Of a stretch of DNA of 64,000 bases, positions 5,558 through 36,507 are shown one piece after another. Both the position numbers and the translations under genes were made by a program. Below the pieces are notes generated by a model. It searched no databases, was not told the DNA's origin, and worked only from the letters and a program-made list of their open reading frames with translations. Numbering within the stretch: the stretch's first letter is position 1; each line of letters begins with the position of its first letter. The DNA is from an uncultured Acidobacteriota bacterium (GTDB taxonomy: Bacteria; Acidobacteriota; UBA6911): contig CAWEJX010000008.1 of assembly GCA_963809485.1 (NCBI GenBank), positions 352,001-416,000 on the forward strand, read 5' to 3'.

Positions 5558-6271
5558 TCAGTTCAGGAACTTCGCGTAACCCGATATCATGATGGGATCA
5601 AAGCCCTGACCCATAACACAGCCGACCGTCATCATGTGGTCATAGTCCTGAAGCATAATAACGCGGTTTGTGAAGAATGGGGCGCAAACGCCCTGATGGA
5701 CGCGGCCCTTAATATCGACGAGGTAAATGGGACCTTTGATACTGGTTGCCTGGCAGGGCTGTTCAAAGGGCTCATTTTCTCTAGGCGACCAGGCCACGCG
5801 GCACTTGCCCGCCTCAAAGAAGTCCTGTGCCGTAAAACGGCCGCAGCCCAAAATCCAGGCCACATTGGTCCCGACCATAGCGTCGCCGGCGGAGCCATGG
5901 AGGGCCTGCGAACCGTCGGTCTTTGACTTTTGATCCGGGTCCCCGATGGCGCCATGGACATAATCATCGCCAAGAACCAGCGTTACGAGGGACTGCTCAA
6001 GTTCCATGACCGCAACATTGAGGCCGAAACGGACAAAATAGGTATTCAGCTCCAGTTTCAGGCACTCGTAGGCATATTCCTTGCCCTCGAATACGGCATT
6101 CTTTTTACACTTGAACGCCAGCTTATATTCCTTGTCCCCTGCGATAAGGGTGAAATCCTTGCCCGCGAGTTCGTAGTTATGCGCGAATCTGTACTGGCCG
6201 ATGCCATGCTTCTCGCCGGAGTTGGCAAGATTCTTTATATATACGCCGCCATCGTCATAAACGTAATTCAT
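5558..6271 (-). CDS. MoaF-like domain protein
   Basis: ELAGKDFTL...YECLKL...MVGTNVAW...MLQDYDHMMTVG; clear paralog of the adjacent gene. Confidence 0.6.
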   Translation of the reverse strand: MNYVYDDGGVYIKNLANSGEKHGIGQYRFAHNYELAGKDFTLIAGDKEYKLAFKCKKNAVFEGKEYAYECLKLELNTYFVRFGLNVAVMELEQSLVTLVLGDDYVHGAIGDPDQKSKTDGSQALHGSAGDAMVGTNVAWILGCGRFTAQDFFEAGKCRVAWSPRENEPFEQPCQATSIKGPIYLVDIKGRVHQGVCAPFFTNRVIMLQDYDHMMTVGCVMGQGFDPIMISGYAKFLN

Positions 6272-6308
6272 TTATGGTTGCTCCTTTCTTTTCGATGAGA
6301 TCGACCGC

Positions 6309-7181
6309 TCAGACTGTGTATGGATTCTCGGCGTTCAGGAACTCGTCATTGAGCTTCACAGGGTTGCCAAATGCGCCGAACAGTGTGCGGCAAGGCCCTA
6401 GGACGCCGTCCCTCTGGATGGTGCCGAAAGTACGGCCGACATGATACATGCGGTCGTAGTTCTGCAGGAAATTCATGTTGTTTGAGCGGAACAGGCACTT
6501 GTCGCCGACGATGCGCTCCATCATCTCCTCTGTGAGACTGAAGAGGTACATATTCTCTTTGATCTTGATGTACTGGGCGACCTCGTCCGAGGCGGGCATC
6601 AACTCAAAGGGATCGCCGATTTTTTCAACGGCAGTGCTGATCCTGGGCCAGGTGATACGGTAATAAGAGGTGCAATAATAGTCATGCTGGGTAAACATTG
6701 AGGTGTTCCAGTGCCACTCAACCCTGGTGCCGACCATCTGGGTGGTGAAGCAGTGGCGTTTCATGGGCAACTCCATCCCCTCGACCTCGATGGCGCCGAA
6801 GTCGTACTCGCTTTTGACGAGATAGGGGAGCTTTGGATTGCCTCCCATGGAGCAAACTGCCCTCGTGACGAGGCGCTGCTCCAGATCAATAATGAAAAAA
6901 TGGTTCACCTTGTTTGGCTTGTCAAGGAACTCCACAAGATCGTAGTCCACGAGGTATGTCGTGTCGTCGCCCTTGAGGCACTCGTATCTGGCTGCTTTCG
7001 GCTTATCGCCGGCAATATTCCATTCGCAGGCATCTTTGCCGGTGAATTTCAGTTCGAAATCATAACCGTTGTCCATAATGAAGCGAAAACTCCTACCTTC
7101 CAGCTCAGAGCAGTGGGGCTGCGTGAACTGATCGATGGCATAATCCCTGCGTGGATAGTTTTTGAGATTCAATTTGCTCAC
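6309..7181 (-). CDS. MoaF-like domain protein
   Basis: ELEGRSF...YECLKGDDTTYLVD...MVGTRVEW...YIKIKENMYLF...FLQNYDRMYHVGRTFG. GGAGG spacing favours a TTG start at 7172. Confidence 0.65.
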   Translation of the reverse strand: MSKLNLKNYPRRDYAIDQFTQPHCSELEGRSFRFIMDNGYDFELKFTGKDACEWNIAGDKPKAARYECLKGDDTTYLVDYDLVEFLDKPNKVNHFFIIDLEQRLVTRAVCSMGGNPKLPYLVKSEYDFGAIEVEGMELPMKRHCFTTQMVGTRVEWHWNTSMFTQHDYYCTSYYRITWPRISTAVEKIGDPFELMPASDEVAQYIKIKENMYLFSLTEEMMERIVGDKCLFRSNNMNFLQNYDRMYHVGRTFGTIQRDGVLGPCRTLFGAFGNPVKLNDEFLNAENPYTV

Positions 7182-7700
7182 CTCCCGTTCATAAAATATT
7201 CAAGCGATTCCAGCAATACATTCGTTTCGCCGGCAATTTCTGGCTGATAGGCATAATCAGCCGCCCTCCAGGGGATGGCCAGGATGGACAAGCTGTCTTT
7301 TTGCATGGCCAACACGCCGCCGGAAAACCTTTCCCAATCTTGACGCTCATGCCACTCAGTGCCTGCCGCCGCCCGCATGTGGTATTTCATGCATGTACCG
7401 TTGTGAATTGCCAAAATATGCTTCCTATGGAATGCACGATATGAGCGCTGGAAATCCCATTAAGCCGTTGATTTCGACACTGATTGCAATTTTATCCCAT
7501 ATTGGGACAATATATCCTGGAATTTTTACAGGTCTGAACTTATCAGCCGGATTTTGGACTCAACGGAGGAAAGTCATAATTCCATGCATGCTGAACTGGG
7601 AAATTAGTTAGCCTGATCCTGGATTTGGACACTATGGGGCTGTTTAAGACATAATTCTCTAATGGGGACTTCAAAACTAATTATCATGGAGGAATCGCGC

Positions 7701-9419
7701 ATGAAATTGCGTATCGCGGTCCTTGCAGTTTTGTGCATAGGCCTTGTTTGCAGTGTTTCAATGCAGAGCAATCAGACCTATGCGCAAGGGAAGAAATCAG
7801 CCTCGGCCAATGGACCGGTGGTCATGCCGAAAATAACGGTGCTCAATCCGATGGGAACGCCGCCGCCGATCACGTTGATCCCTCAGGCGCCGCGCCCGAA
7901 CACGCTGGACGGCAAGACTCTCTACTTTATTAATACCGGCTATATAGGGACCGATCGTCTTATGGCAGTAATGTCCGATTGGTTTAAGGCCAACTATCCC
8001 AAAACCAACATCGTATATAAAGACTATAAAAGCGGGGCCGGATTGGCCGAGCTGAGCAAAGAATTGTGGGCTGAGGTTGCTGAAAAAGGAGACGCCGCAA
8101 TCGTCGGGCTGGGCCATTGAAGTCTCTGTGCGCCAGCGGCGGTTCGCCTCTCTTTTGATATCGAATCCAAAATGAAAAAGCCCGCAGTGCCCCTCATCCT
8201 GACCGATTTTGAAAAACAGGAAAAAGAGGTGGCTTATAACCTCGGAATGCCCAATCTGCGGATCCAATTTTTCCGCGGCCCGGTCTGGGGTAAAACGAAC
8301 GAGCAACTCAAGAAGCAGATTGTGGAAGGAAACAATCCGATTACGGGGAAACCGGTGATGCCGGAGCTGGTGGAAAAACTGACCAAACCCCTGACGGCTG
8401 AAGAACAAAAAACCGGAGAAGTGAAGCAGAATCTGGGACCGAAGACTTATACAGGAACGCCCGACGAACTCCAGAAGTTATTTCTCGAAAAAAGATACAC
8501 GGACTTCCTGCCCGTGGTATTGCCCACCGAAGATAAAGTCGCCGAAATGCTGAAGTTCACCAGCCACGAACCCACCAAGGTGCTCGGCAAAATGAATCCC
8601 GGGTCCGAGGCCGGCGAAAGCTGGACCTATACGGTAAAGGATGCAGCCGTGAGCGCAGTCATGGCGGGCGCCAAACCGGAATATTTCCCGGTCATTCTGG
8701 CATTGGGCTCAACCGGCATGACGGCCGTCAACGTTTCCGATAACGGCTTCATGGCGGGTGCCGTAATCAATGGCAAGATCCGCGACGAAATCGGGCTTAA
8801 TTACGAAGAGGGCGCCGTAGGCCCCTATGCCCACGCCAATACGACCATTGGCAGAGCCTGGAGCCTGCTGTCCATCAATGGCGGAAACTGCGGCAAAGTC
8901 GGAACAACCTATATGGGCACGATCGGAAATCCAATGAACCTGATCGGGATCATCATGGCCGAAAATGAAGGGAAATCTCCCTTCAAGCCGCTGTCTGTGA
9001 GGCGCGGATTTAAAGAAGGTGAAAACATCGTCACTCTATTCATGGGATGGGGCATTCTTTCCGCCAAGAACTGGGCCGCAACTATTTGGGGGCCCAACAT
9101 GAACTATCCCGAGATTATCAAGGAGATCTACAGTACGCAGGACGGACACTTGTTTGGAACTTGCGCCGTTCTGAGTCCGCCGATCGCCAATTTCGTCAAG
9201 GACGCCGGATACGATACCGTGGAAAAGTTTACGGAATGGGTAACGGGCCAGCCGATTGGAGCCAAGCCCGCCGCTCCCCGCGGAGCGGAGATCAACATGG
9301 GCGTTCGCAAAGCCGGAGGGATGTTCACCGTCATCGTCACCGGCGGATCCAACAACAACTACTTCAGCATGGGCGGCATGGTGCCGGCCCAGTCAGTCCA
9401 GATTGATAAGTGGCGGTAG
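7701..9419 (+). CDS. UGSC-family-like secreted selenoprotein (572 aa, Sec140 at TGA 8118..8120, motif GH-U-SLC)
   Basis: ORFs 7662..8120 and 8172..9419 are in frame and joined by 17 sense codons (SLCAPAAVRLSFDIESK). UxxC motif; hairpin after the UGA; GGAGG RBS and signal peptide; full-length paralog at 30287..31942. Confidence 0.85.
8138..8148 (+). promoter_or_regulatory. Putative bacterial SECIS apical hairpin
   Basis: GGCG-GTT-CGCC, with the loop 22-24 nt after the UGA. Same G-GTT-C apex as in the paralog. Confidence 0.55.
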
Positions 9420-10456: not shown

Positions 10457-11601
10457 CTACGCCAGAAGGTCTTGCGCCCTGATCAGTCTGTTTCGGACCT
10501 CGACCCCATTGGGGCACCGAATAGCGCAGGCGGAGCAATCGCTGCAACGAACGGCGCGGATTTCATCCGGCAGACGCATAAAATTATTGCGTGCCTGCCT
10601 GAAGTCGCCGGCGAAATCGTTATAGGCCAGGTACCGCAATTCATCGGTGACCGGTATCCCCTTCGGGCATTTGCCTTTGCACTCATAGCACATGCGGCAG
10701 TAGAGCGGACGGATCTCCTCGTTTCGCGCAAACAGCATTTTCTCGTCCTGAGGAGTATACGGCTCCGTCATTGCCCGGAAGTTCATCTCAACCTCGCTAT
10801 GTTTTCTGCATAAGGCACGGTGGTCGATATGTCGGGATTCATTAAAACCCACTTGACGGCCGCCAGCGGCCCCTCGTTTGTCAGCACCCTCTTCCTTTTG
10901 GGGGAGGCCCGAATCCGGCCATGGCCATCGCGACAATCACTTTCATCGCCACGACGCCGATTCCCGCTTCATGCAGCTTGTGCAGGGCCGCATTGCGGTC
11001 GGAGCCTATCGGGTAGCTGTAGGTGGTTTGCACGACATCGTGTTTTCCGAGTTTTATGATTTTGTCCACGACAGCATTGATATCGTGCGTGCTGATTCCG
11101 ATGAAACGCGTCTTGCCCTGCTTTTTCAGCATTTCCTGGGCTTCGACCGCCTCGTCGGTTATCGAATCCGGCGTGTCTCTGGCGTGCAGATGCCAGATGT
11201 CGACATGATCCGTCCGCAGCGCCTTGAGACTCTCGTCCATTTCCTTGAAGACTTCCGCTTTGGTCATTCCATCGGTTTTGCTGGCCAGAATGATTTTGTT
11301 TCTCCTGGCACTTGAGAGCGGCCCCGGTGATTTCTTCGCTTTTGCCCTTTTCGTACGTGCGGGCAGTGTCGAAGTAGTTGACACCCAAATCTGCGGCACG
11401 AACGAGGACCGCGGGATCGGGAATAAGGCCGACGCCGCAGCCGACACCGGATACTTTCAGGCCGGTCTTGCCGAGTACCCGGTAGCCCACTACGCCTGTG
11501 GACTGGCCAAAGGATTCCGGAGAATGAGAAGCGACAAGTCCCGCAACGGGCAAAGCAAGTCCGGTTTGGAGGAATTTCCTGCGCGATGAATCGAACTCCA
11601 T
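10457..11601 (-). pseudogene. Tat-signal aldo/keto reductase with C-terminal 4Fe-4S dicluster, three frameshifts
   Basis: SRRKFL leader; YRVLGKTGLKVS, NYFDTARTY, LKALRTDHVDIWHLH, GVVAMK; CRMCYECKGKCP and CSDCSACAIRCP. Frame switches near 11310, 10890 and 10795. Confidence 0.85.
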
Positions 11602-12340
11602 GAAGCGCTCCTTTCACAAAAAGGTCTGAAATCCCTGAGCCACGGTATCAGGCTCAAAGACCCAAACACTCCTGATGCGTCCAAAATTGCTGAAAAAGTT
11701 TTTTGATTGCTGCGCCGATGGCTATAAATCCCGGTTAAGGCCTCCATGGGCGGCACAGTGAGGTCCATACGCGATGGCGCCGTATGCGCCGCACCGGATG
11801 TCAAAGATGTGTCCAGCATATCATGAAAAGGGCTCGGATCCTGCAAAATGATTCTATTGCCGGGAACAAGCATCCGTAAGGGGCCATGCGGCCATGGTCG
11901 GGATATCCGGTTGAGACAGCTGCACATCGGCCGTGAGCCGAAATTGCAGAACGCTGGAACAGAACTTTCAGATTCCCACTGTCGGAGGCGCGGCATCCAA
12001 TATCATCCAATATGCCCAGGGACACGATTTCCAGTACACCAACGGCTCGCCCATTCGATATATATCCTTTCCCTTCCCAGTGGCCGGGCAACCTCAATCA
12101 GTCCACCATCTCAAAGGCATCTATCTGAGCCTCGTCTGCCACATAAATCGGCCTGCCTCGGTGATAATTTCGTTTTGAAATACGCTGTTCATCTCCCGTA
12201 GTTTTATCAAGTCCACGCGGCGTCCGCGGTTTGAAAATTCCGGTCTATGCTGTTTTCCCTGTTCTCTGCGTTTTCTGGCGATGCTTATCTGGTGTCCGGG
12301 CACGGAGGCCGCGGGCGATCAGCTCGACGGTGCCGATCTC

Positions 12341-30286: not shown

Positions 30287-31942
30287 TTATCGCCCGGCCT
30301 TGGTCATGGTCGCGCCCGTGATCTTTTTTGTGACATGGGCAACCGTCTCGTAGCTCCACAACAGGGAATAGCCCGGCACACCGCCGGCCACGGTAATGGA
30401 AAAATTCTTTTCCGGTATGCCGGTCTTTTGAGCAAACCAAGCCTGTACATCCTTGCTGGTTTTATAACCCATTTTTGCTAAACCTTGAGCACATTCCGGG
30501 TGAAACCATACCAGATAGCCCCCTCTGCCTTTGCCGATCGATTTAATCATACCGTCCAAAATCCCCTGCTCCGTCCAGATAGCGACCGCTCCACCTCCAA
30601 ACATATTGGCCCCAGATCCACCATAAGAGCCGACCTTGGTCACCGTCACTGTACTGTCTCCCTTGGCAAAACCCTGGCTTACCTGATAGGGGTCCCAGGG
30701 GCTCATCTCTTCATTTTCGGCAAAGGTGTAAAAGGTATGCGGCGACGTCCGCCCGGTCAGGGCCATGTCGTTCTCCGCCGGCCACGTGTGACCAATATTG
30801 CGCGTCGCTAATCGAACGGACCGTCCAATGGTATTATTGGCGCGCCAGCAATCGCCCAGGTAACCAATCCCCGAATTCATGTTGATTTCCTTAGCTATTG
30901 GACCGTTCACCTGAATGGCAAGAGTAAAGGCACCCGCCGATCCCATCATGTGCCAGAATCCCATCCCGGTGTACCCTGGCGCCACAAATGCCTCCATCGC
31001 CGCGATTACCACTGGAAAGTACTCCGGCTTTGCTCCCGCCATCACCGCGTTGATCGCAATCTTTTCAATAGTGGCCGTGCCGGATTTCATGGGGATTTTG
31101 CCTATCACTTCGCTCGGGGAACGACTCGTCCCTTTGAGCATCCGGGCAACGGCTTCCCTGGTCGGGGGCACCAGAGGCAATCCATCGCCCATCTTGTTTT
31201 CGAGAAACGACGCGTTGAACTTTTCCACCGCGTCCTCATAACTATCGCCCGTAATGCGAACGGGCGGGTATTCGACTGCGGATCTTGTCTGAGGCTTCGC
31301 CTCCTCTGCTGTCAGAGGCTTCGTCAGTGCATCCACAATGGGATTAAAAGCGGCTTCAACGAGGGGTCTTAACTCTTGTACCGTTCCCCGAAGCCTGTAC
31401 CATTTTTCGGAAGGAAATGTTACCATCCGCATGTTGGGCATCAACCAATCAGCAGCGGCTGATTTTGCGTCCTTCAGGAAATTCGAGCTGACCAGAAGTA
31501 CTCCAGGCGCTCCATACTTTTCCATCTGCATTGTGCGGCGGGAACCCCACCACGTGCAGGTCCCTCAGTCTCCCATCGCATATACAAATGCATCGCATCC
31601 CTTCGCGATCGACTGAAAATGCTCTTCCTGTGCCTGTGCCTGTATTCCCGGGTTAAATCCTCGCTGAATAGTTACGCCCGGATACTTCTGCTTCAGCATT
31701 TCTTCCAGTATGTCAAATAGCTGCGGCACACCCGGTTTGATGTTATGCACCAGAGCAATCTTCTTACCAGAGTAATCCGAAAGACGAGGCCTCAGTGCTA
31801 AAAATGGCTCAGGCTCAATCACGCCCATGGGATTGAGCAGCTCCAAAGTAACCTTTTCGTTCGCCGGCCCGGCCTTCGACCACCCGCCAAAAAATAAACC
31901 GGCGGTCAGCAGCAAAAAAGCCGCTAAGATTTTATTTCTCAT
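30287..31942 (-). CDS. UGSC-family secreted selenoprotein (551 aa, Sec126 at TGA 31565..31567, motif GD-U-GTC)
   Basis: ORFs 31565..31942 and 30287..31531 are in frame and joined by GTCTWWGSRRT. UxxC motif; strong hairpin after the UGA; signal peptide; C-domain DGLPLVPPT...NAVMAGAKPEYFPV. Confidence 0.9.
31527..31558 (-). promoter_or_regulatory. Putative bacterial SECIS element
   Basis: TGCA-C-GTGGTGGG-GTT-CCCGCCGC-ACAA-TGCA: 8-bp upper stem with two G-U pairs; loop 20-22 nt after the UGA. Confidence 0.75.
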
Positions 31943-32068
31943 TCTTGTCTCCTTATTGGTTATCGCTAAATACGGGTTATCTCCCGTTTATTTCATCACT
32001 TACTGATAAGCACGGTCATCATTTGTTGAACTAACATCCTATGGTACTTCAGAATACAAACTTAAGGA

Positions 32069-33034
32069 TTAAGCGCAGGCCAGTATCGCTTTCTTTACCA
32101 TCCCCGCGGCTACCTGAATCTTCCACTTGTTCAGCGTCAGCGCCCTCGCTCCCGTGACCGCAGCCGTGCCGGCCGCCTGCGCGCTCGCCACATCGATCGT
32201 CTTGCCCGCTATGGATTCCTCCGCCTTAGTTGCCCGGTAGGGTTTGTTATATACCGCATTGAGGCATATCCTGGCCGTTCCGCCGCCAATGGCAGCCGCA
32301 CAATTCACAATGGGAAAGTCTATCGACGATCTCAGCGCGAACTTTACAAAGGCGCTTTTGACGCCGGAAGCCGGCGCGGGAACCTGAATCTCCTTTACGA
32401 TTTCGTCGTTCTCGAGCACCGTGGAACGAGGGATCTTTACCGCCCAGAACTCCTCGGCGTTGATCGTTCTCTTCGATGTCACTATCCTGGCATTTAAGGC
32501 GACCAGCGCCGGCGCCGTATCGCTTGGATTCACAGCCATGCAGGCTGAAACACCCCCGAATATCGAGTGGTATCGATTCTCGCCGGCCATGGCGAAGCAC
32601 GTTTTGCCGCCTTTCCTGATACAGAAAAACCTGTTGTCGTGGAGCCGGAAATACCAGCAGCGGTTGAGCTGGCAGATGTTGCCGCCGATCGTGCCCATTT
32701 CCCGGATGTGCGGCGAAGCGGTTTTGTGGGCCGCCTCCGACAGCGCTGCCCACTTGCTTTTGACGACACTGCTCTTCGCTATATCCTCCAGCCTGGTCAG
32801 GGCGCCTATCCGCAGCATGCCCTTTTCTTCTTTGATGTAATCCAGGCTGGGCGTTATGGTCTTGAGGTTTACCAGAATCTGAGGATACATGGTATCCGGG
32901 AGTACCTCAAACCTCATGGTTCCCACAAGATCGGTGCCCCCGGCAAGTGCCCAGGCATTGGCTGTACGCAGGGCCGACACCGCCTCTTCCACCGTCTTGG
33001 CATTCATTCGGGTGAATTTCCTTACGGTCTTCAT
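32069..33034 (-). CDS. Xanthine dehydrogenase family FAD-binding subunit (PaoB/YagS-like, with 4Fe-4S insert)
   Basis: AGGTDL, RIGALTRL, ASPHIREMGTIGGN, RCWYFR...CIRKGGKTC...C.AVNPSD. Confidence 0.93.
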   Translation of the reverse strand: MKTVRKFTRMNAKTVEEAVSALRTANAWALAGGTDLVGTMRFEVLPDTMYPQILVNLKTITPSLDYIKEEKGMLRIGALTRLEDIAKSSVVKSKWAALSEAAHKTASPHIREMGTIGGNICQLNRCWYFRLHDNRFFCIRKGGKTCFAMAGENRYHSIFGGVSACMAVNPSDTAPALVALNARIVTSKRTINAEEFWAVKIPRSTVLENDEIVKEIQVPAPASGVKSAFVKFALRSSIDFPIVNCAAAIGGGTARICLNAVYNKPYRATKAEESIAGKTIDVASAQAAGTAAVTGARALTLNKWKIQVAAGMVKKAILACA

Positions 33035-33048
33035 TTTTGTCTAAGCTC

Positions 33049-35395
33049 CTATCCTTTGCCCAGCGCTTTTAGGATCCTGTCCGGGGTGATCGGTTCAATG
33101 TCCACATACTTGCCTATGGCGTTGTATACGGCCGTAGGTATGATCGTGTGGTTGCACGCGCCGCCGTCTTCCCCAATGCCGCAGCTCCCATAAGGGGCAT
33201 ACGCCAGACCCGTTTCCACATAGGCGCACTCAATCGACGCGACGTCATTCATCACATTCACCGGGTACCCTATCAGGTTGTCGTTCAGTACCACTCCTGT
33301 TTTTGGATCGTGATACACCGTCTCTTTGCTGGATCTCCCGAGCCCCATATAAGCGCCGCCGTACTGCTGGCCGTTAAACGCGTCCGGGTTTATTACTTTG
33401 CCTCCGTCATTGACGCTAACCTGTTTTTTTATTTCTATCCCTCCCGTATCGGGGTCTACCTCTATTTCCAAGAAATGCGCTTGCCGGACCATGCTGTACT
33501 CATGTCCCACACCGCCACGCCCTGTGTGACCGGGAGTATAGTCCCATACATACAAGTCATAGGTGGATGCGGCCGCCACTTGCGCCAGTGTCTTTTTATT
33601 TTCCGGGTTCGCCTTTTCAAAAACCACGCTGTCCTTGATGTCCAGTTCTTCAACCTTTTTATTCGGGAAAAATGCAGGCATTTCCCGTGACAGATTTCCC
33701 AATGTCCTGCGCCGGGACGGTGGCACAACTACTTTTTCAAGGATCAACTGCTTCATCTTCCGCGCGGCTCTTGCCGCTGCCAGATTACTTCCGCTCATCC
33801 CCTGGGATCCGCCCCCCGGCTCCGATACAAGACCGTCGCGGCCTTCGAAGGGTCTTATCCGAACGTCTTTATAATTGGCTCCCATTTCATCGGCCACGAC
33901 CTGGCAGTAGGCGGTCTGTCCAACAACGCCTCCATCACATTGCGTTGCCAGGATATTAACCGTTCCATCGGCGTTCACTCTGATGCCTATGCCGGCAGTC
34001 CCCACCGTATGCGCCCACTCGACGGTCGAGACATAGCCCATCCCGTGATAATTCCCATTGGGCAGAATTTTGGTCCCGGGCAAGTGCCATTTTTTATCCC
34101 ACTCCATAATTTTCTTACCCAGTTCATTCACCTCTTTGAAACTGTCTCTGTCCGTGTTAAATCCCTGCGGCTTCCGGACGTGTTCGTTGGCATACGCCCA
34201 GTCGTGGCCTTCGCAGCCCTCATTGATCTGGGCGATCTTGCTTGGATCCATCCCCAGTTCGCCGGCTACGTGCTCCCATACCTGGGTTACCACTCTGACG
34301 CTCGAGGAACCATGCTTGAAGCACTGAATGGGCGGCTTTGTATGAGCCGCCACATCGCACGTAATGTATATATTGGGAATCCTGGTGCCTTTGTGTATTT
34401 TAACGGTACTGGCTTCTGTGACCCAGGCTTCGTAGCATTTCAGCTGTACGGCCGTGATGCGGCCATCCAGTTTGAATCCCACTTTAAAATAGTAGCGCGA
34501 CCGGGCGTCCTCGTCACAGCCCTCGAAGTGACTGTCATCGTCCAGAACTTTTACCGGGCACCCCGTTCGCCTGGCAGCGATTACAGCCACCTGAGCTGTT
34601 TGGGGGGCCGCGCGCATATTACTCGAACCTCCAAAAAATGCTCCATTATAGGGTAGGTACAGATGGATCTTGTGCACAGGGCTGTATTGTCGCAGAGCAT
34701 CCATCGCGTACAACCAGTTCTGGCCGTGATGCCAAACATCCAGATAGTCTCCCCTGCATTCCGCCACTCCGACATGTGCCTCTACCCCGGCCCACACGTC
34801 CTGATCATCACCCGCTACCCATTCGACTACTTTGTCGGCCTCGGCAAACCCTTTTTCAACATCCCCAAACTTGACAGGAGGCTGCCTCGTCTTATTGTTC
34901 GACTTGGGATTTGTGTCCGGGCGCATTATTGGAGCGCCCGGCTTCAACGCTTCCTCAGGGTCCAGGATCACCGGCAGCTCTTCCATCTCGAGTTCTATCA
35001 GTCGCAATGCCCGGTCGACTATCGCCTCGCTTTCGCCTACCACCACAGCTCCCACCATCCCCCGATACCAGTGGTTCGTGTCGGAGACAAGCGGTTTGCC
35101 CTCATACTTAGGCCAGGTTATCCCGGGATCATCATATCGAAGTACCGCTCTTACTCCGGGAAAAGCCTCGGCCTTGCTGGTATCCAGGCGTTTGATCTTA
35201 GCGTGACCGTAGGGGGATCGATAGAAACTTCGCATACAGCATCCCCGGACGGTATATGTCCCTGGTATACACGGCACTTCCGCTCGCTTTTTCATAACCA
35301 TCCAGACGCCGTACGCGGCGTTTCCCGATCACGCCGCCTTCCGGCACCGGCCAAAGCCAAGGATATAAGGGTTCTCCCTCTTTCAGACCGTACAT
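33049..35395 (-). CDS. Xanthine dehydrogenase family molybdopterin-binding subunit, one frameshift near 35225
   Basis: N-terminal RRLDGYEKASGSAVYTRDIYRPGMLYAKF (35198..35395) continues in another frame as RSPYGHAKI. Also GAFFGG, DGGKVINP, GQQYGG, GIGE. Confidence 0.88.
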
Positions 35396-35410
35396 TTTCT
35401 CAGCCCTCCT

Positions 35411-36073
35411 CTAGGCGCTCCCAATGACTTCCTTAACGGCTATTATGTGTTGTGTGTATGTGCCGCACCGGCATATGTTGCCCCCCAGCGCGTCCCTTAT
35501 ATCTTCCTCCGTCGGCCTGGGGATACGATCCAGCAACGCCTTGGCGGTTACCACAAATCCCGGCGTGCAGTAGCCGCACTGCATGCAATGGTTCAGAACG
35601 TAAGCCTCGATGAGTTGCGGAGTGTTGATGGCAACACCTTCCGCCGTCTCTATTGCCGCGCCGTCACAATCCGCCGCAAACGTCATGCAGGAAAGCACCG
35701 GCCGCCCGTTCATAATCACCGTGCAGGACCCGCAGGCTCCGTAACCGTTGCACATATCCTTGATGGACAAAAAGCCCAGCTGATCGCGAAGCACATCGCG
35801 CAGCATCCACTCCGGCTCAACCCGAAGCTCATACCTATGCTTGTTCACCGTGAAATTTATCGTTTGGGCAGCTGCCGAGGAGGCCAGTGCGAGGACGCCC
35901 GCCGGAGCGGCTCCGGCCCGTTTCGCTGCCTGGGGACCAGCGGCAACCACATTGGCGCCCGCCCCTGTACCGAGGATGGCTACGGAGCTGACAGCAAATT
36001 CCCGGCGCGATATCGGTCCCAATCCTGTTCTGTCACTTTCCCGGGTTTTCTTTTTTTCTTCCTCTTTCGACAT
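35411..36073 (-). CDS. (2Fe-2S)-binding subunit with Tat signal (PaoA/YagT-like)
   Basis: SRREFA; CNGYGACGSCTV...SC; QCGYCTPG; NICRCG. GGAGGA precedes ATG 36073. Confidence 0.93.
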   Translation of the reverse strand: MSKEEEKKKTRESDRTGLGPISRREFAVSSVAILGTGAGANVVAAGPQAAKRAGAAPAGVLALASSAAAQTINFTVNKHRYELRVEPEWMLRDVLRDQLGFLSIKDMCNGYGACGSCTVIMNGRPVLSCMTFAADCDGAAIETAEGVAINTPQLIEAYVLNHCMQCGYCTPGFVVTAKALLDRIPRPTEEDIRDALGGNICRCGTYTQHIIAVKEVIGSA

Positions 36074-36507
36074 TGCACTCCTCCCTTTCCTGCCCTTTTT
36101 GTCTCCCAAAACCGAATCTATCTCGGCGTGCCCGCCTTATGCGTCGTGCCTGCCGGAACTCGATATGTCTATGGGGCAGTCTCCGGTGTACGTGCGAGCA
36201 TTTTATCACTCTGCTATGCTAAATGGTCTCTGCCGCGAAACTGCTTTGCGCTGCGCGAAATGTGGCGCCTCTTGTTTTATTGTTCGACATCCTAAAAATG
36301 AATCCGGGCAACTATTATGCCGTCCTCTTGATGAATTCAGCTTAACCAAGCCCCATTCGGAATCTCGATGAACGGTAATTCCTGGGGAGCCTTTGTTCAA
36401 ATCCCGCAATTGTAATCAACGTCTGACCTTATATCGGCTCGCACTTCCCTCGCACTTTCAAAGATCTCGTCGTTCACAATAGCACGTTTGAAAGCATAGT
36501 TTCCTAA

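Follow-up and report, generated by a model that had tools for sequence, protein, structure and literature searches.

Selenoproteins in which a UGSC domain is fused to a C-terminal domain called Unknown_1 were already described in 2008 by Zhang and Gladyshev (PMC2398784, Fig. S1A), and UGSC, with 255 sequences, was among the most abundant selenoprotein families of an ocean survey (PMC2398784, Table 2). In the available text of a 2026 review (PMC13188914) the family has no assigned function, as the initial annotation of the locus studied here had also stated; the same review describes GrdB and PrdB, involved in the reductive deamination of glycine and the ring cleavage of D-proline, respectively. 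Here we analyse a UGSC/Unknown_1 fusion gene at positions 7701 to 9419 of a 64,000-nt stretch of DNA (hereafter the window) from an uncultured Acidobacteriota bacterium of the lineage UBA6911 (GenBank assembly GCA_963809485.1, contig CAWEJX010000008.1, positions 352,001 to 416,000, forward strand). The expansion of the family, rather than this single gene, is the striking feature.

An acidobacterial gene of the UGSC/Unknown_1 family

With TGA read as selenocysteine (Sec, U), positions 7701 to 9419 of the forward strand form a single frame of 572 amino acids, in which U140 (8118-8120) is the sole recoded codon (AAIVGLGH-U-SLCAPAAV). Gene calling with translation table 11 gives two open reading frames (ORFs) in the same frame, 7662-8120 and 8172-9419, and in 118 of the 120 best database hits the match is limited to the part after the TGA, at most 75% of the protein. 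Both the hidden selenoprotein continuous across the TGA that the initial annotation had proposed and its splitting by gene callers are borne out. The features of the gene are the following.

7626..7655, forward strand: weak sigma70-like site (10 of 12 matches), from a promoter scan that gave 3 sites where 2.6 are expected by chance
7688..7692, forward strand: Shine-Dalgarno-like GGAGG, 8 nt 5' of the ATG at 7701, from the sequence
7701..9419, forward strand: predicted UGSC/Unknown_1 fusion selenoprotein, one gene, 572 aa, from frame translation, TGA conservation and an orthologue in the relative genome G012
7701..7784, forward strand: predicted Sec/SPI signal peptide, residues 1-28, putative cleavage after QTYA, from the sequence, crude hydropathy and similar orthologue N-termini
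7839..8318, forward strand: UGSC domain (Pfam PF24696), residues 47-206, flavodoxin-like alpha/beta/alpha in the model; 62.3 bits, cut-off 25
8118..8120, forward strand: in-frame TGA as probable Sec140, from conservation in homologues and the Sec machinery of the genome
8127..8129, forward strand: Cys143, second residue of UxxC; TGC (28) or TGT (27) in 55 copies that had been selected on that Cys
8138..8148, forward strand: minimal bacterial selenocysteine insertion sequence (SECIS), stem GGCG/CGCC, loop GUU, 21 nt after the UGA, conforming to the consensus rule
8433..9416, forward strand: Unknown_1 domain, residues ~245-572, with no Pfam family, a confident model and no clear fold match

The PF24696 match covers profile positions 2-158 of 172, passes the gathering cut-off and has the TGA in its middle. 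The NCBIfam equivalog NF041046 is not reached (35.8 bits against a cut-off of 125), which also holds for four further fused homologues tested and for one named by RefSeq. The C-terminal domain corresponds to Unknown_1 (AVSAVMAGAKPEYFP here, AVNGVMAGCRPEYMP in the 2008 figure, compared by eye with the rows of Fig. S1A in PMC2398784), and its profile also matches the partner genes of stand-alone UGSC. Because of the PF24696 match, with UxxC at the same place, and of the published fusion, the family and its architecture must be considered known. The acidobacterial protein differs in its predicted signal peptide, in having USLC instead of UGSC, and in its score below the NF041046 cut-off. The new part is therefore not the family or the motif but the predicted exported, expanded form and the link to GrdB and PrdB. 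The signal peptide claimed in the initial annotation stands as a prediction drawn from two observations, an anatomy judged by eye to be Sec/SPI-like (MKLR, about 17 hydrophobic residues and a terminal QTYA followed by Q) and a crude hydropathy score of 3.2. The periplasmic location and the enzyme activity named in the initial annotation are likewise putative. The promoter and terminator scans gave output near chance level.

Decoding of UGA140

We are highly confident that UGA140 is a conserved recoding site and that the predicted product is a 572-aa selenoprotein, because the UGA is conserved, the genome encodes a full Sec machinery and a SECIS-like hairpin follows the codon. SelA, SelB, SelD and tRNA-Sec(UCA) are all encoded, with scores above curated cut-offs, in the genome G000, an assembly of 6.04 Mb in 21 contigs with a completeness of 95.7% and a contamination of 7.3%, and the SelD gene has an in-frame TGA of its own. 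Among 56 loci fetched from other genomes, the 55 aligned copies that span the site (more than 50% identical) have TGA in 54 cases and TGG in one, never TAA, TAG or a Cys codon. Such constancy exceeds what chance would give, as TGA makes up only 666 of the 1673 stops of long ORFs in this genome. The initial annotation had named a lack of Sec machinery and homologues ending in TAA or TAG at the site as observations that would speak against it, and neither was found. It had also pointed to Cys-bearing homologues as a test. These exist: in a set of 150 distant representatives, 84 full-length rows reach the site, with Cys in 35, another residue in 43 and a gap in 6, and one Cys-bearing homologue in RefSeq (WP_358488424.1), a 560-aa fused protein, bears the name 'UGSC family (seleno)protein'. 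Identity reaches 93% in the closest homologues, which lie on contigs of Acidobacteriota metagenome-assembled genomes, one of them labelled UBA6911, and G012 holds a one-to-one orthologue with the same U-SLC. The paralogue with UGA at the same column that had been used as initial support could be confirmed (AFVYAMGD-U-GTC; 30.5% identity across 492 columns in tblastn, E 1e-47).

Bacterial SECIS elements are expected to have a loop of 3-9 nt with G in the first two places and a stem of at least 4 bp, 16-37 nt after the UGA (PMC13188914, Fig. 2). Using this rule with the spacing narrowed to 16-24 nt, 38 of 46 family sites passed, against 198 of 944 ordinary TGA stops. At 44 of the 46 sites (mean z -1.28) the segment +10 to +39 nt after the UGA exceeds its synonymous shuffles in folding stability, compared with 17 and 21 of 46 for two control windows; the sites are related to one another and a locus with two TGAs counts twice. 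In the gene under study the hairpin is extendable to 8135-8151 with one mismatch, which is a G-U pair in many orthologues.

It is in our opinion very improbable that the TGA is instead a true stop, which would leave a pseudogene or two genes, or that it encodes tryptophan under another code. The separate database entries of the two halves and the TGG of one homologue would agree with it, and so would the hairpin of this gene, which passes the SECIS rule but is weak by itself (z -0.52) and thus counts against the selenoprotein. A true stop would, however, cut PF24696 in mid-domain and is difficult to reconcile with the absence of TAA and TAG from the 55 copies, in which the 17 codons from the TGA to the next ATG show 241 synonymous against 284 non-synonymous differences and a single stop. 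Likewise, upstream of that ATG (8172) there is no Shine-Dalgarno-like site comparable to the GGAGG before the ATG at 7701. As for another code, long ORFs end in TGA more often than in either other stop codon (666 of 1673), which excludes a genome-wide reassignment, and the tRNA-Trp has the anticodon CCA. Contigs of relatives in three RNA libraries span the TGA but show neither strand, level nor readthrough, their flanks provide no valid control, and they were not used as evidence; in a search of sequencing runs, no run contained half of the words.

Expansion of the family in one genus

The genome holds 58 PF24696 matches, 41 of them with TGA. A profile-based catalogue lists 50 fused genes that are full-length and in a single frame; 38 of them have TGA (35 UxxC and 3 UGAA) and 12 do not, and a further 7 TGA loci are frameshifted or partial. 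The middle residues of the 35 UxxC paralogues vary, so that USLC is not the special variant motif for which it was initially taken. By a crude test, 35 of the 38 TGA paralogues have export-like N-termini (33 hydrophobic and 2 twin-arginine-like). For comparison, UGSC has one copy in the Olavius metagenome. The expansion is genus-wide, as all 24 other genomes searched hold between 9 and 45 matches, and a one-contig genome of the genus has 35, 31 of them with TGA. By contrast, 2 of 16 genomes from other families have one match each, and two related genera have no PF24696 match yet possess SelA. In a scan of 301 genomes of the phylum, with at most 11 candidates scored per genome, 32 had a match and the maximum outside the genus was 3, mostly short stand-alone genes. 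Five genomes labelled Desulfobacterota or delta proteobacterium, picked for holding a close homologue, have 16-28 matches each.

These copies are old and kept, as indicated by their median identity of 33%, the one-contig genome with 35 matches and the orthologue pairs with G012. In a tree of 50 own rows and 28 rows from 30 of the 35 G012 loci (IQ-TREE quick search, SH-aLRT only), 12 one-to-one pairs with G012, including the gene at 7701..9419, have support of 99-100 and 2 more have 92-94; the tree is midpoint-rooted for drawing, and we derive from it neither a donor nor a sequence of transfers. An artefact of assembly or binning, in which mixed strains would have inflated a few real genes, is a largely refuted and extremely improbable explanation. 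The contamination estimate, the 7 broken TGA loci and 2 pairs more than 95% identical are what one would expect from it, but the remaining 701 of 703 pairs lie below that identity, and neither the one-contig genome nor the matches in 24 of 24 genus members can be explained in this way. We did not find the expansion reported in the searched literature on UGSC selenoproteins and Acidobacteriota selenoproteomes, a scope that lies outside subscription journals and database tables; review supplements and BSepDB tables, also outside it, may list UGSC copy numbers for such genomes. The word part 'selen' is absent from the main text of a genomic study of the family UBA6911 (10.1101/2021.04.09.439258).

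Two further members of the family lie in the window:

30287..31942, reverse strand: second intact paralogue, 551 aa, signal-like N-terminus, GD-U-GTC, TGA at 31567-31565, from tblastn and gene reading
11873..12109, forward strand: remnant of a third paralogue, ~80 codons, SG-U-DSC, TGA at 11912-11914, from a profile/sequence match

The intact one (G000:C8:382434) is flanked upstream by xanthine-dehydrogenase-like Mo-enzyme genes and downstream by an MFS gene. It is 98% identical to a copy at C12:156675, reflecting a recent duplication or a strain mix, and the xanthine-dehydrogenase-like gene set (window 30287-36109, reverse strand) recurs nearly identical on C12, beside another paralogue. Several other loci show unusual forms. 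Three tandem paralogues at G000:C4:341950-347590, at most 90% identical and on a long branch, have W-U-GAA, with Sec kept and the second Cys gone. A broken paralogue at G000:C13:46038-46043 has two consecutive in-frame TGA codons (GG-U-U-GG), and the genomes G345-G348 also hold matches with two TGAs. Five proteins of ~710-740 aa (P0155, P0172, P0203, P0223, and P0263) lack a UGSC domain and contain stretches similar to Unknown_1, two or three in each.

The selenoproteome of the genome

We count at least 47 intact selenoprotein candidates, 38 UGSC proteins and 9 others, so that about four fifths come from one family, compared with families of 2-12 genes in the Olavius data set. The others are SelD, a PrdB-like protein, two MvhD, a NiFe-hydrogenase large subunit, and thioredoxin-like, CoA-disulfide-reductase-like and DUF1573 proteins; the ninth, recognised by its CxU motif only, is a protein that we take to be UshA-like. 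A genome-wide TGA screen regained only 26 and 31 of 46 known sites. Among 20 candidates fetched from it, 7 fit known selenoprotein families (6 by Pfam and 1 by motif only), 3 are TGAs inside other Pfam domains, which we did not count, and 10 are gene junctions or unsupported. Among 24 molybdopterin matches we saw no Sec-bearing formate dehydrogenase. In Table 2 of the BSepDB paper (PMC13326102), the ten largest bacterial selenoproteomes have 46-63 genes, a range within which the candidates found here would lie, and none of the ten is from Acidobacteriota; the deep-Sep paper (PMC12013277) gives 46 selenoproteins in a cultured species.

The PrdB-like selenoprotein (L101, G000:C20:1216512-1216865, reverse strand) has LLLPA-U-PGC and a C-terminal extension, PrdA and GrdE being unmatched in the genome; of 151 Acidobacteriota genomes, 38 have PF07355 matches, and almost every one of these is partial, as it is here. 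An enoyl-CoA hydratase gene (L182; L132:1-780, G000:C20:784785-785564; PF00378 over 17-259) has an in-frame TGA (LGIL-U-PYG) with a strong hairpin 23 nt downstream. This TGA is not a single-assembly error, since it is also present in a 97% identical copy of the genome G006, and the gene is a candidate for an unlisted selenoprotein or for a shared nonsense allele. The sole 'enoyl' entry in PMC13188914 bears a different motif. The in-frame TGAs of two other loci (L133 and L134), within an amino-acid permease and an MFS domain, are probably errors or pseudogenes.

Modelled fold and resemblance to GrdB and PrdB

The full-length model has a pLDDT of 87.9 and a pTM of 0.88. Its N-terminal domain shows a generic likeness to doubly wound alpha/beta domains (best Z 10.1, rmsd 4.6, 142 aligned residues), and the 572-aa protein has no Pfam hit from the thioredoxin clan. 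The UGSC domain is thus modelled as flavodoxin-like and not as a thioredoxin fold, an unlisted thioredoxin-type family being formally possible; the 2008 paper supposed a thioredoxin-like fold (PMC2398784). Unknown_1 is also confidently modelled (pLDDT 90.8), and its invariant residues include D268, N380, R385 and E421. Foldseek found no match at E up to 0.001 with the full-length or the C-terminal domain model. The best VIA-align match of the C-terminal domain, to HK97-type capsid subdomains (Z 5.8, rmsd 2.6, 77 residues), we set aside as a common arrangement that says nothing about function; it is no proof of a new fold either. Sequence searches of the PDB gave no hits with the protein, three with its profile (E 0.13-0.72, nothing useful) and, with the PrdB-like query, a repeat artefact and one row at E 0.26.

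A more informative resemblance emerged from hhalign. Profiles of 86 UGSC N-terminal domains and 30 PF07355 loci (a set including a full-length PF07355 match and members that match TIGR04483 or TIGR01918 below cut-off) align with a probability of 95.6% (P 1.2e-8) along a stretch of 58 columns surrounding the Sec site, and still with 93.2% when all Cys are masked, against 0.3% for the C-terminal domain and 0.2% for a reversed alignment used as controls. As judged by these profiles, the Sec-bearing segment of UGSC is shown to be homologous to that of GrdB (PF07355) and PrdB (TIGR04483). The aligned segment reads strand-U-x-x-C-helix-E-x-x-G-x-P-strand, and thioredoxin linkage is likewise shared with the gene clusters of split homologues. 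The 572-aa protein itself differs in not matching PF07355 or the TIGR models even at E 1, and in having no second CxxC, a fusion to Unknown_1 and a predicted export signal.

Partners and gene neighbourhoods

The two domains probably act as one unit, because the full-length model is confident and because, at 20 Acidobacteriota loci with stand-alone UGSC (2 of them from the studied genome's family and holding fused forms), an Unknown_1 gene occurs in the same stretch in 19 cases, mostly adjacent. Coupling to thioredoxin is suggested by several associations. Unknown_1 carries an N-terminal AhpC/TSA-ResA-like (TlpA-like) domain in 7 of 17 proteins. In a plasmid survey (24 records with the C-terminal domain, 6 annotated loci examined), trxB is present in the clusters of Arthrobacter sp. 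ERGS1:01 (trxB-trxA-hypothetical-UGSC, with Unknown_1 in the third place), Roseovarius THAF8, and Variovorax. The single split locus of the studied genome (C12) is preceded by a TrxR-like gene, and the genome encodes DsbD as well as a predicted exported thioredoxin-like selenoprotein. Most examined plasmid loci are surrounded by transporters, regulators and catabolic genes, and the Paracoccus cluster lies near selB, TusA and DsrE. In the studied genome, the genes within 4 kb of the paralogues make up 6% of the called genes; 10 of the 40 xanthine-dehydrogenase-like genes and 5 of the 23 that are aldehyde-ferredoxin-oxidoreductase-like are among them (raw counts from clustered loci).

A family of small, predicted exported proteins or lipoproteins (L204, G000:C4:161056-161619, and 9 related places; PF11611 in 6 of 77 homologues) is represented by 10 copies in the genome, including one fragment; 8 of the 10 have a UGSC paralogue at a distance of at most 1.3 kb, and none is beside the gene at 7701..9419. 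It is possibly a partner subunit of these paralogues. On the reverse strand of the window, two adjoining MoaF-like genes (5558-7181) are divergent from the selenoprotein gene and recur beside its orthologue at just one other locus, and an aldo/keto-reductase-like gene (10457-11601) lies in three overlapping frames, that is, frameshifted by assembly error or decay.

Proposed function and alternatives

The sequence-based reading that we prefer, and to which we give an even chance of being correct, is that of an exported, thioredoxin/DsbD-recharged, substrate-specific reductase with a selenolate nucleophile and one substrate class per paralogue. The 572-aa protein would be exported through the Sec pathway to the periplasm, where the flavodoxin-like N-terminal domain would present a U-x-x-C pair that corresponds by homology to the Sec site in GrdB and PrdB, packed against an Unknown_1 domain that would bind a small-molecule substrate. 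Attack of the selenolate on the bound substrate would lead to the reductive cleavage of a carbon-heteroatom or an S-S/S-X bond, and Cys143 would resolve the adduct into a selenenylsulfide. This would be re-reduced by a thioredoxin-type carrier, TrxA/TrxB for the cytoplasmic split forms of other bacteria and, in this bacterium, DsbD with the exported thioredoxin-like protein. The dozens of old, diverged paralogues may then be substrate-specific variants with which diverse organic compounds are scavenged in anoxic soil or sediment.

Several observations weigh against such a reductase. In GrdB and PrdB a substrate bound to the pyruvoyl group is attacked by the selenolate as nucleophile, whereas the pyruvoyl partner GrdE/PrdA (PF09338) has no match in the 95.7% complete genome, so that the chemistry cannot be identical. 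The profile match to these enzymes spans 58 columns only, and no solved GrdB or PrdB structure turned up for comparison in our PDB searches. The associations with thioredoxin are not general, since 10 of the 17 Unknown_1 proteins have no TlpA-like fusion and the plasmid clusters of Neorhizobium, Halostagnicola, and Paracoccus (3 of 6) have no trxB. The gene at 7701..9419 is without conserved neighbours, its orthologue surroundings showing only tandem paralogues, and the Cys highlighted in the Unknown_1 rows of the 2008 figure (PMC2398784) is Ala in our protein. Moreover, all 12 intact paralogues without TGA bear S, A, G, M, T, or L at the site, never Cys, and 3 Sec copies have no second Cys, which a purely redox model leaves unexplained.

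These substitutions speak for a non-redox enzyme or a ligand-binding protein, in which Sec would be a tunable nucleophile or a metal or metalloid ligand (as in a hydrolase, transferase, or scavenger) and the Ser, Thr, Ala, and Gly copies would be variants or inert partner subunits. Of the 12 non-Sec paralogues, five have Ser and five have a Sec copy no more than 5 kb away; the two close database homologues of full length carry Ser and Leu at the site, and 49 of the 84 distant representatives have no Cys in that column. Nevertheless, we consider this explanation rather unlikely in view of the Cys at +3 kept in 35 of 38 Sec copies, the repeated linkage to trxB and TlpA-like domains, and the homology to the redox-active GrdB and PrdB. 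The UxxC motif, the predicted export signal and the Trx/TlpA links would equally suit a general envelope thiol-disulfide oxidoreductase, or a scavenger of peroxide or sulfane sulfur, acting on proteins or oxidants, and one homologue cluster near TusA, DsrE, cysteine desulfurase and selB points in the same direction. Such a role seems unlikely, because the domain is not modelled as a thioredoxin fold, a housekeeping function would not need 38 diverged copies with kept orthology, related genera that have SelA show no PF24696 match, and the clusters contain substrate transporters and LysR/GntR regulators.

Implications for selenium use in Acidobacteriota

We tentatively suggest, while doubting it more than the reductase activity itself, that UGSC/Unknown_1 may form an unrecognised third branch of the GrdB/PrdB-type selenoenzymes, with a new-fold domain in place of the pyruvoyl subunit, and that it may have expanded in one uncultured Acidobacteriota genus, with a parallel in some Desulfobacterota, as a periplasmic battery of tens of substrate-specific reductases that break down organic matter in anoxic soils and sediments. 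The function can be tested directly, given the resemblance to GrdB and PrdB, the recurring thioredoxin partners and the Cys-type or split homologues of cultured Arthrobacter, Roseovarius, and Variovorax. If the suggestion is correct, a top-ten selenoproteome would be built mostly from one family hidden from annotation: the genome would join the published top ten from a phylum absent there, by means of predicted exported proteins that databases hold as halves, and the expansion would alter the view of which bacteria use most selenium.

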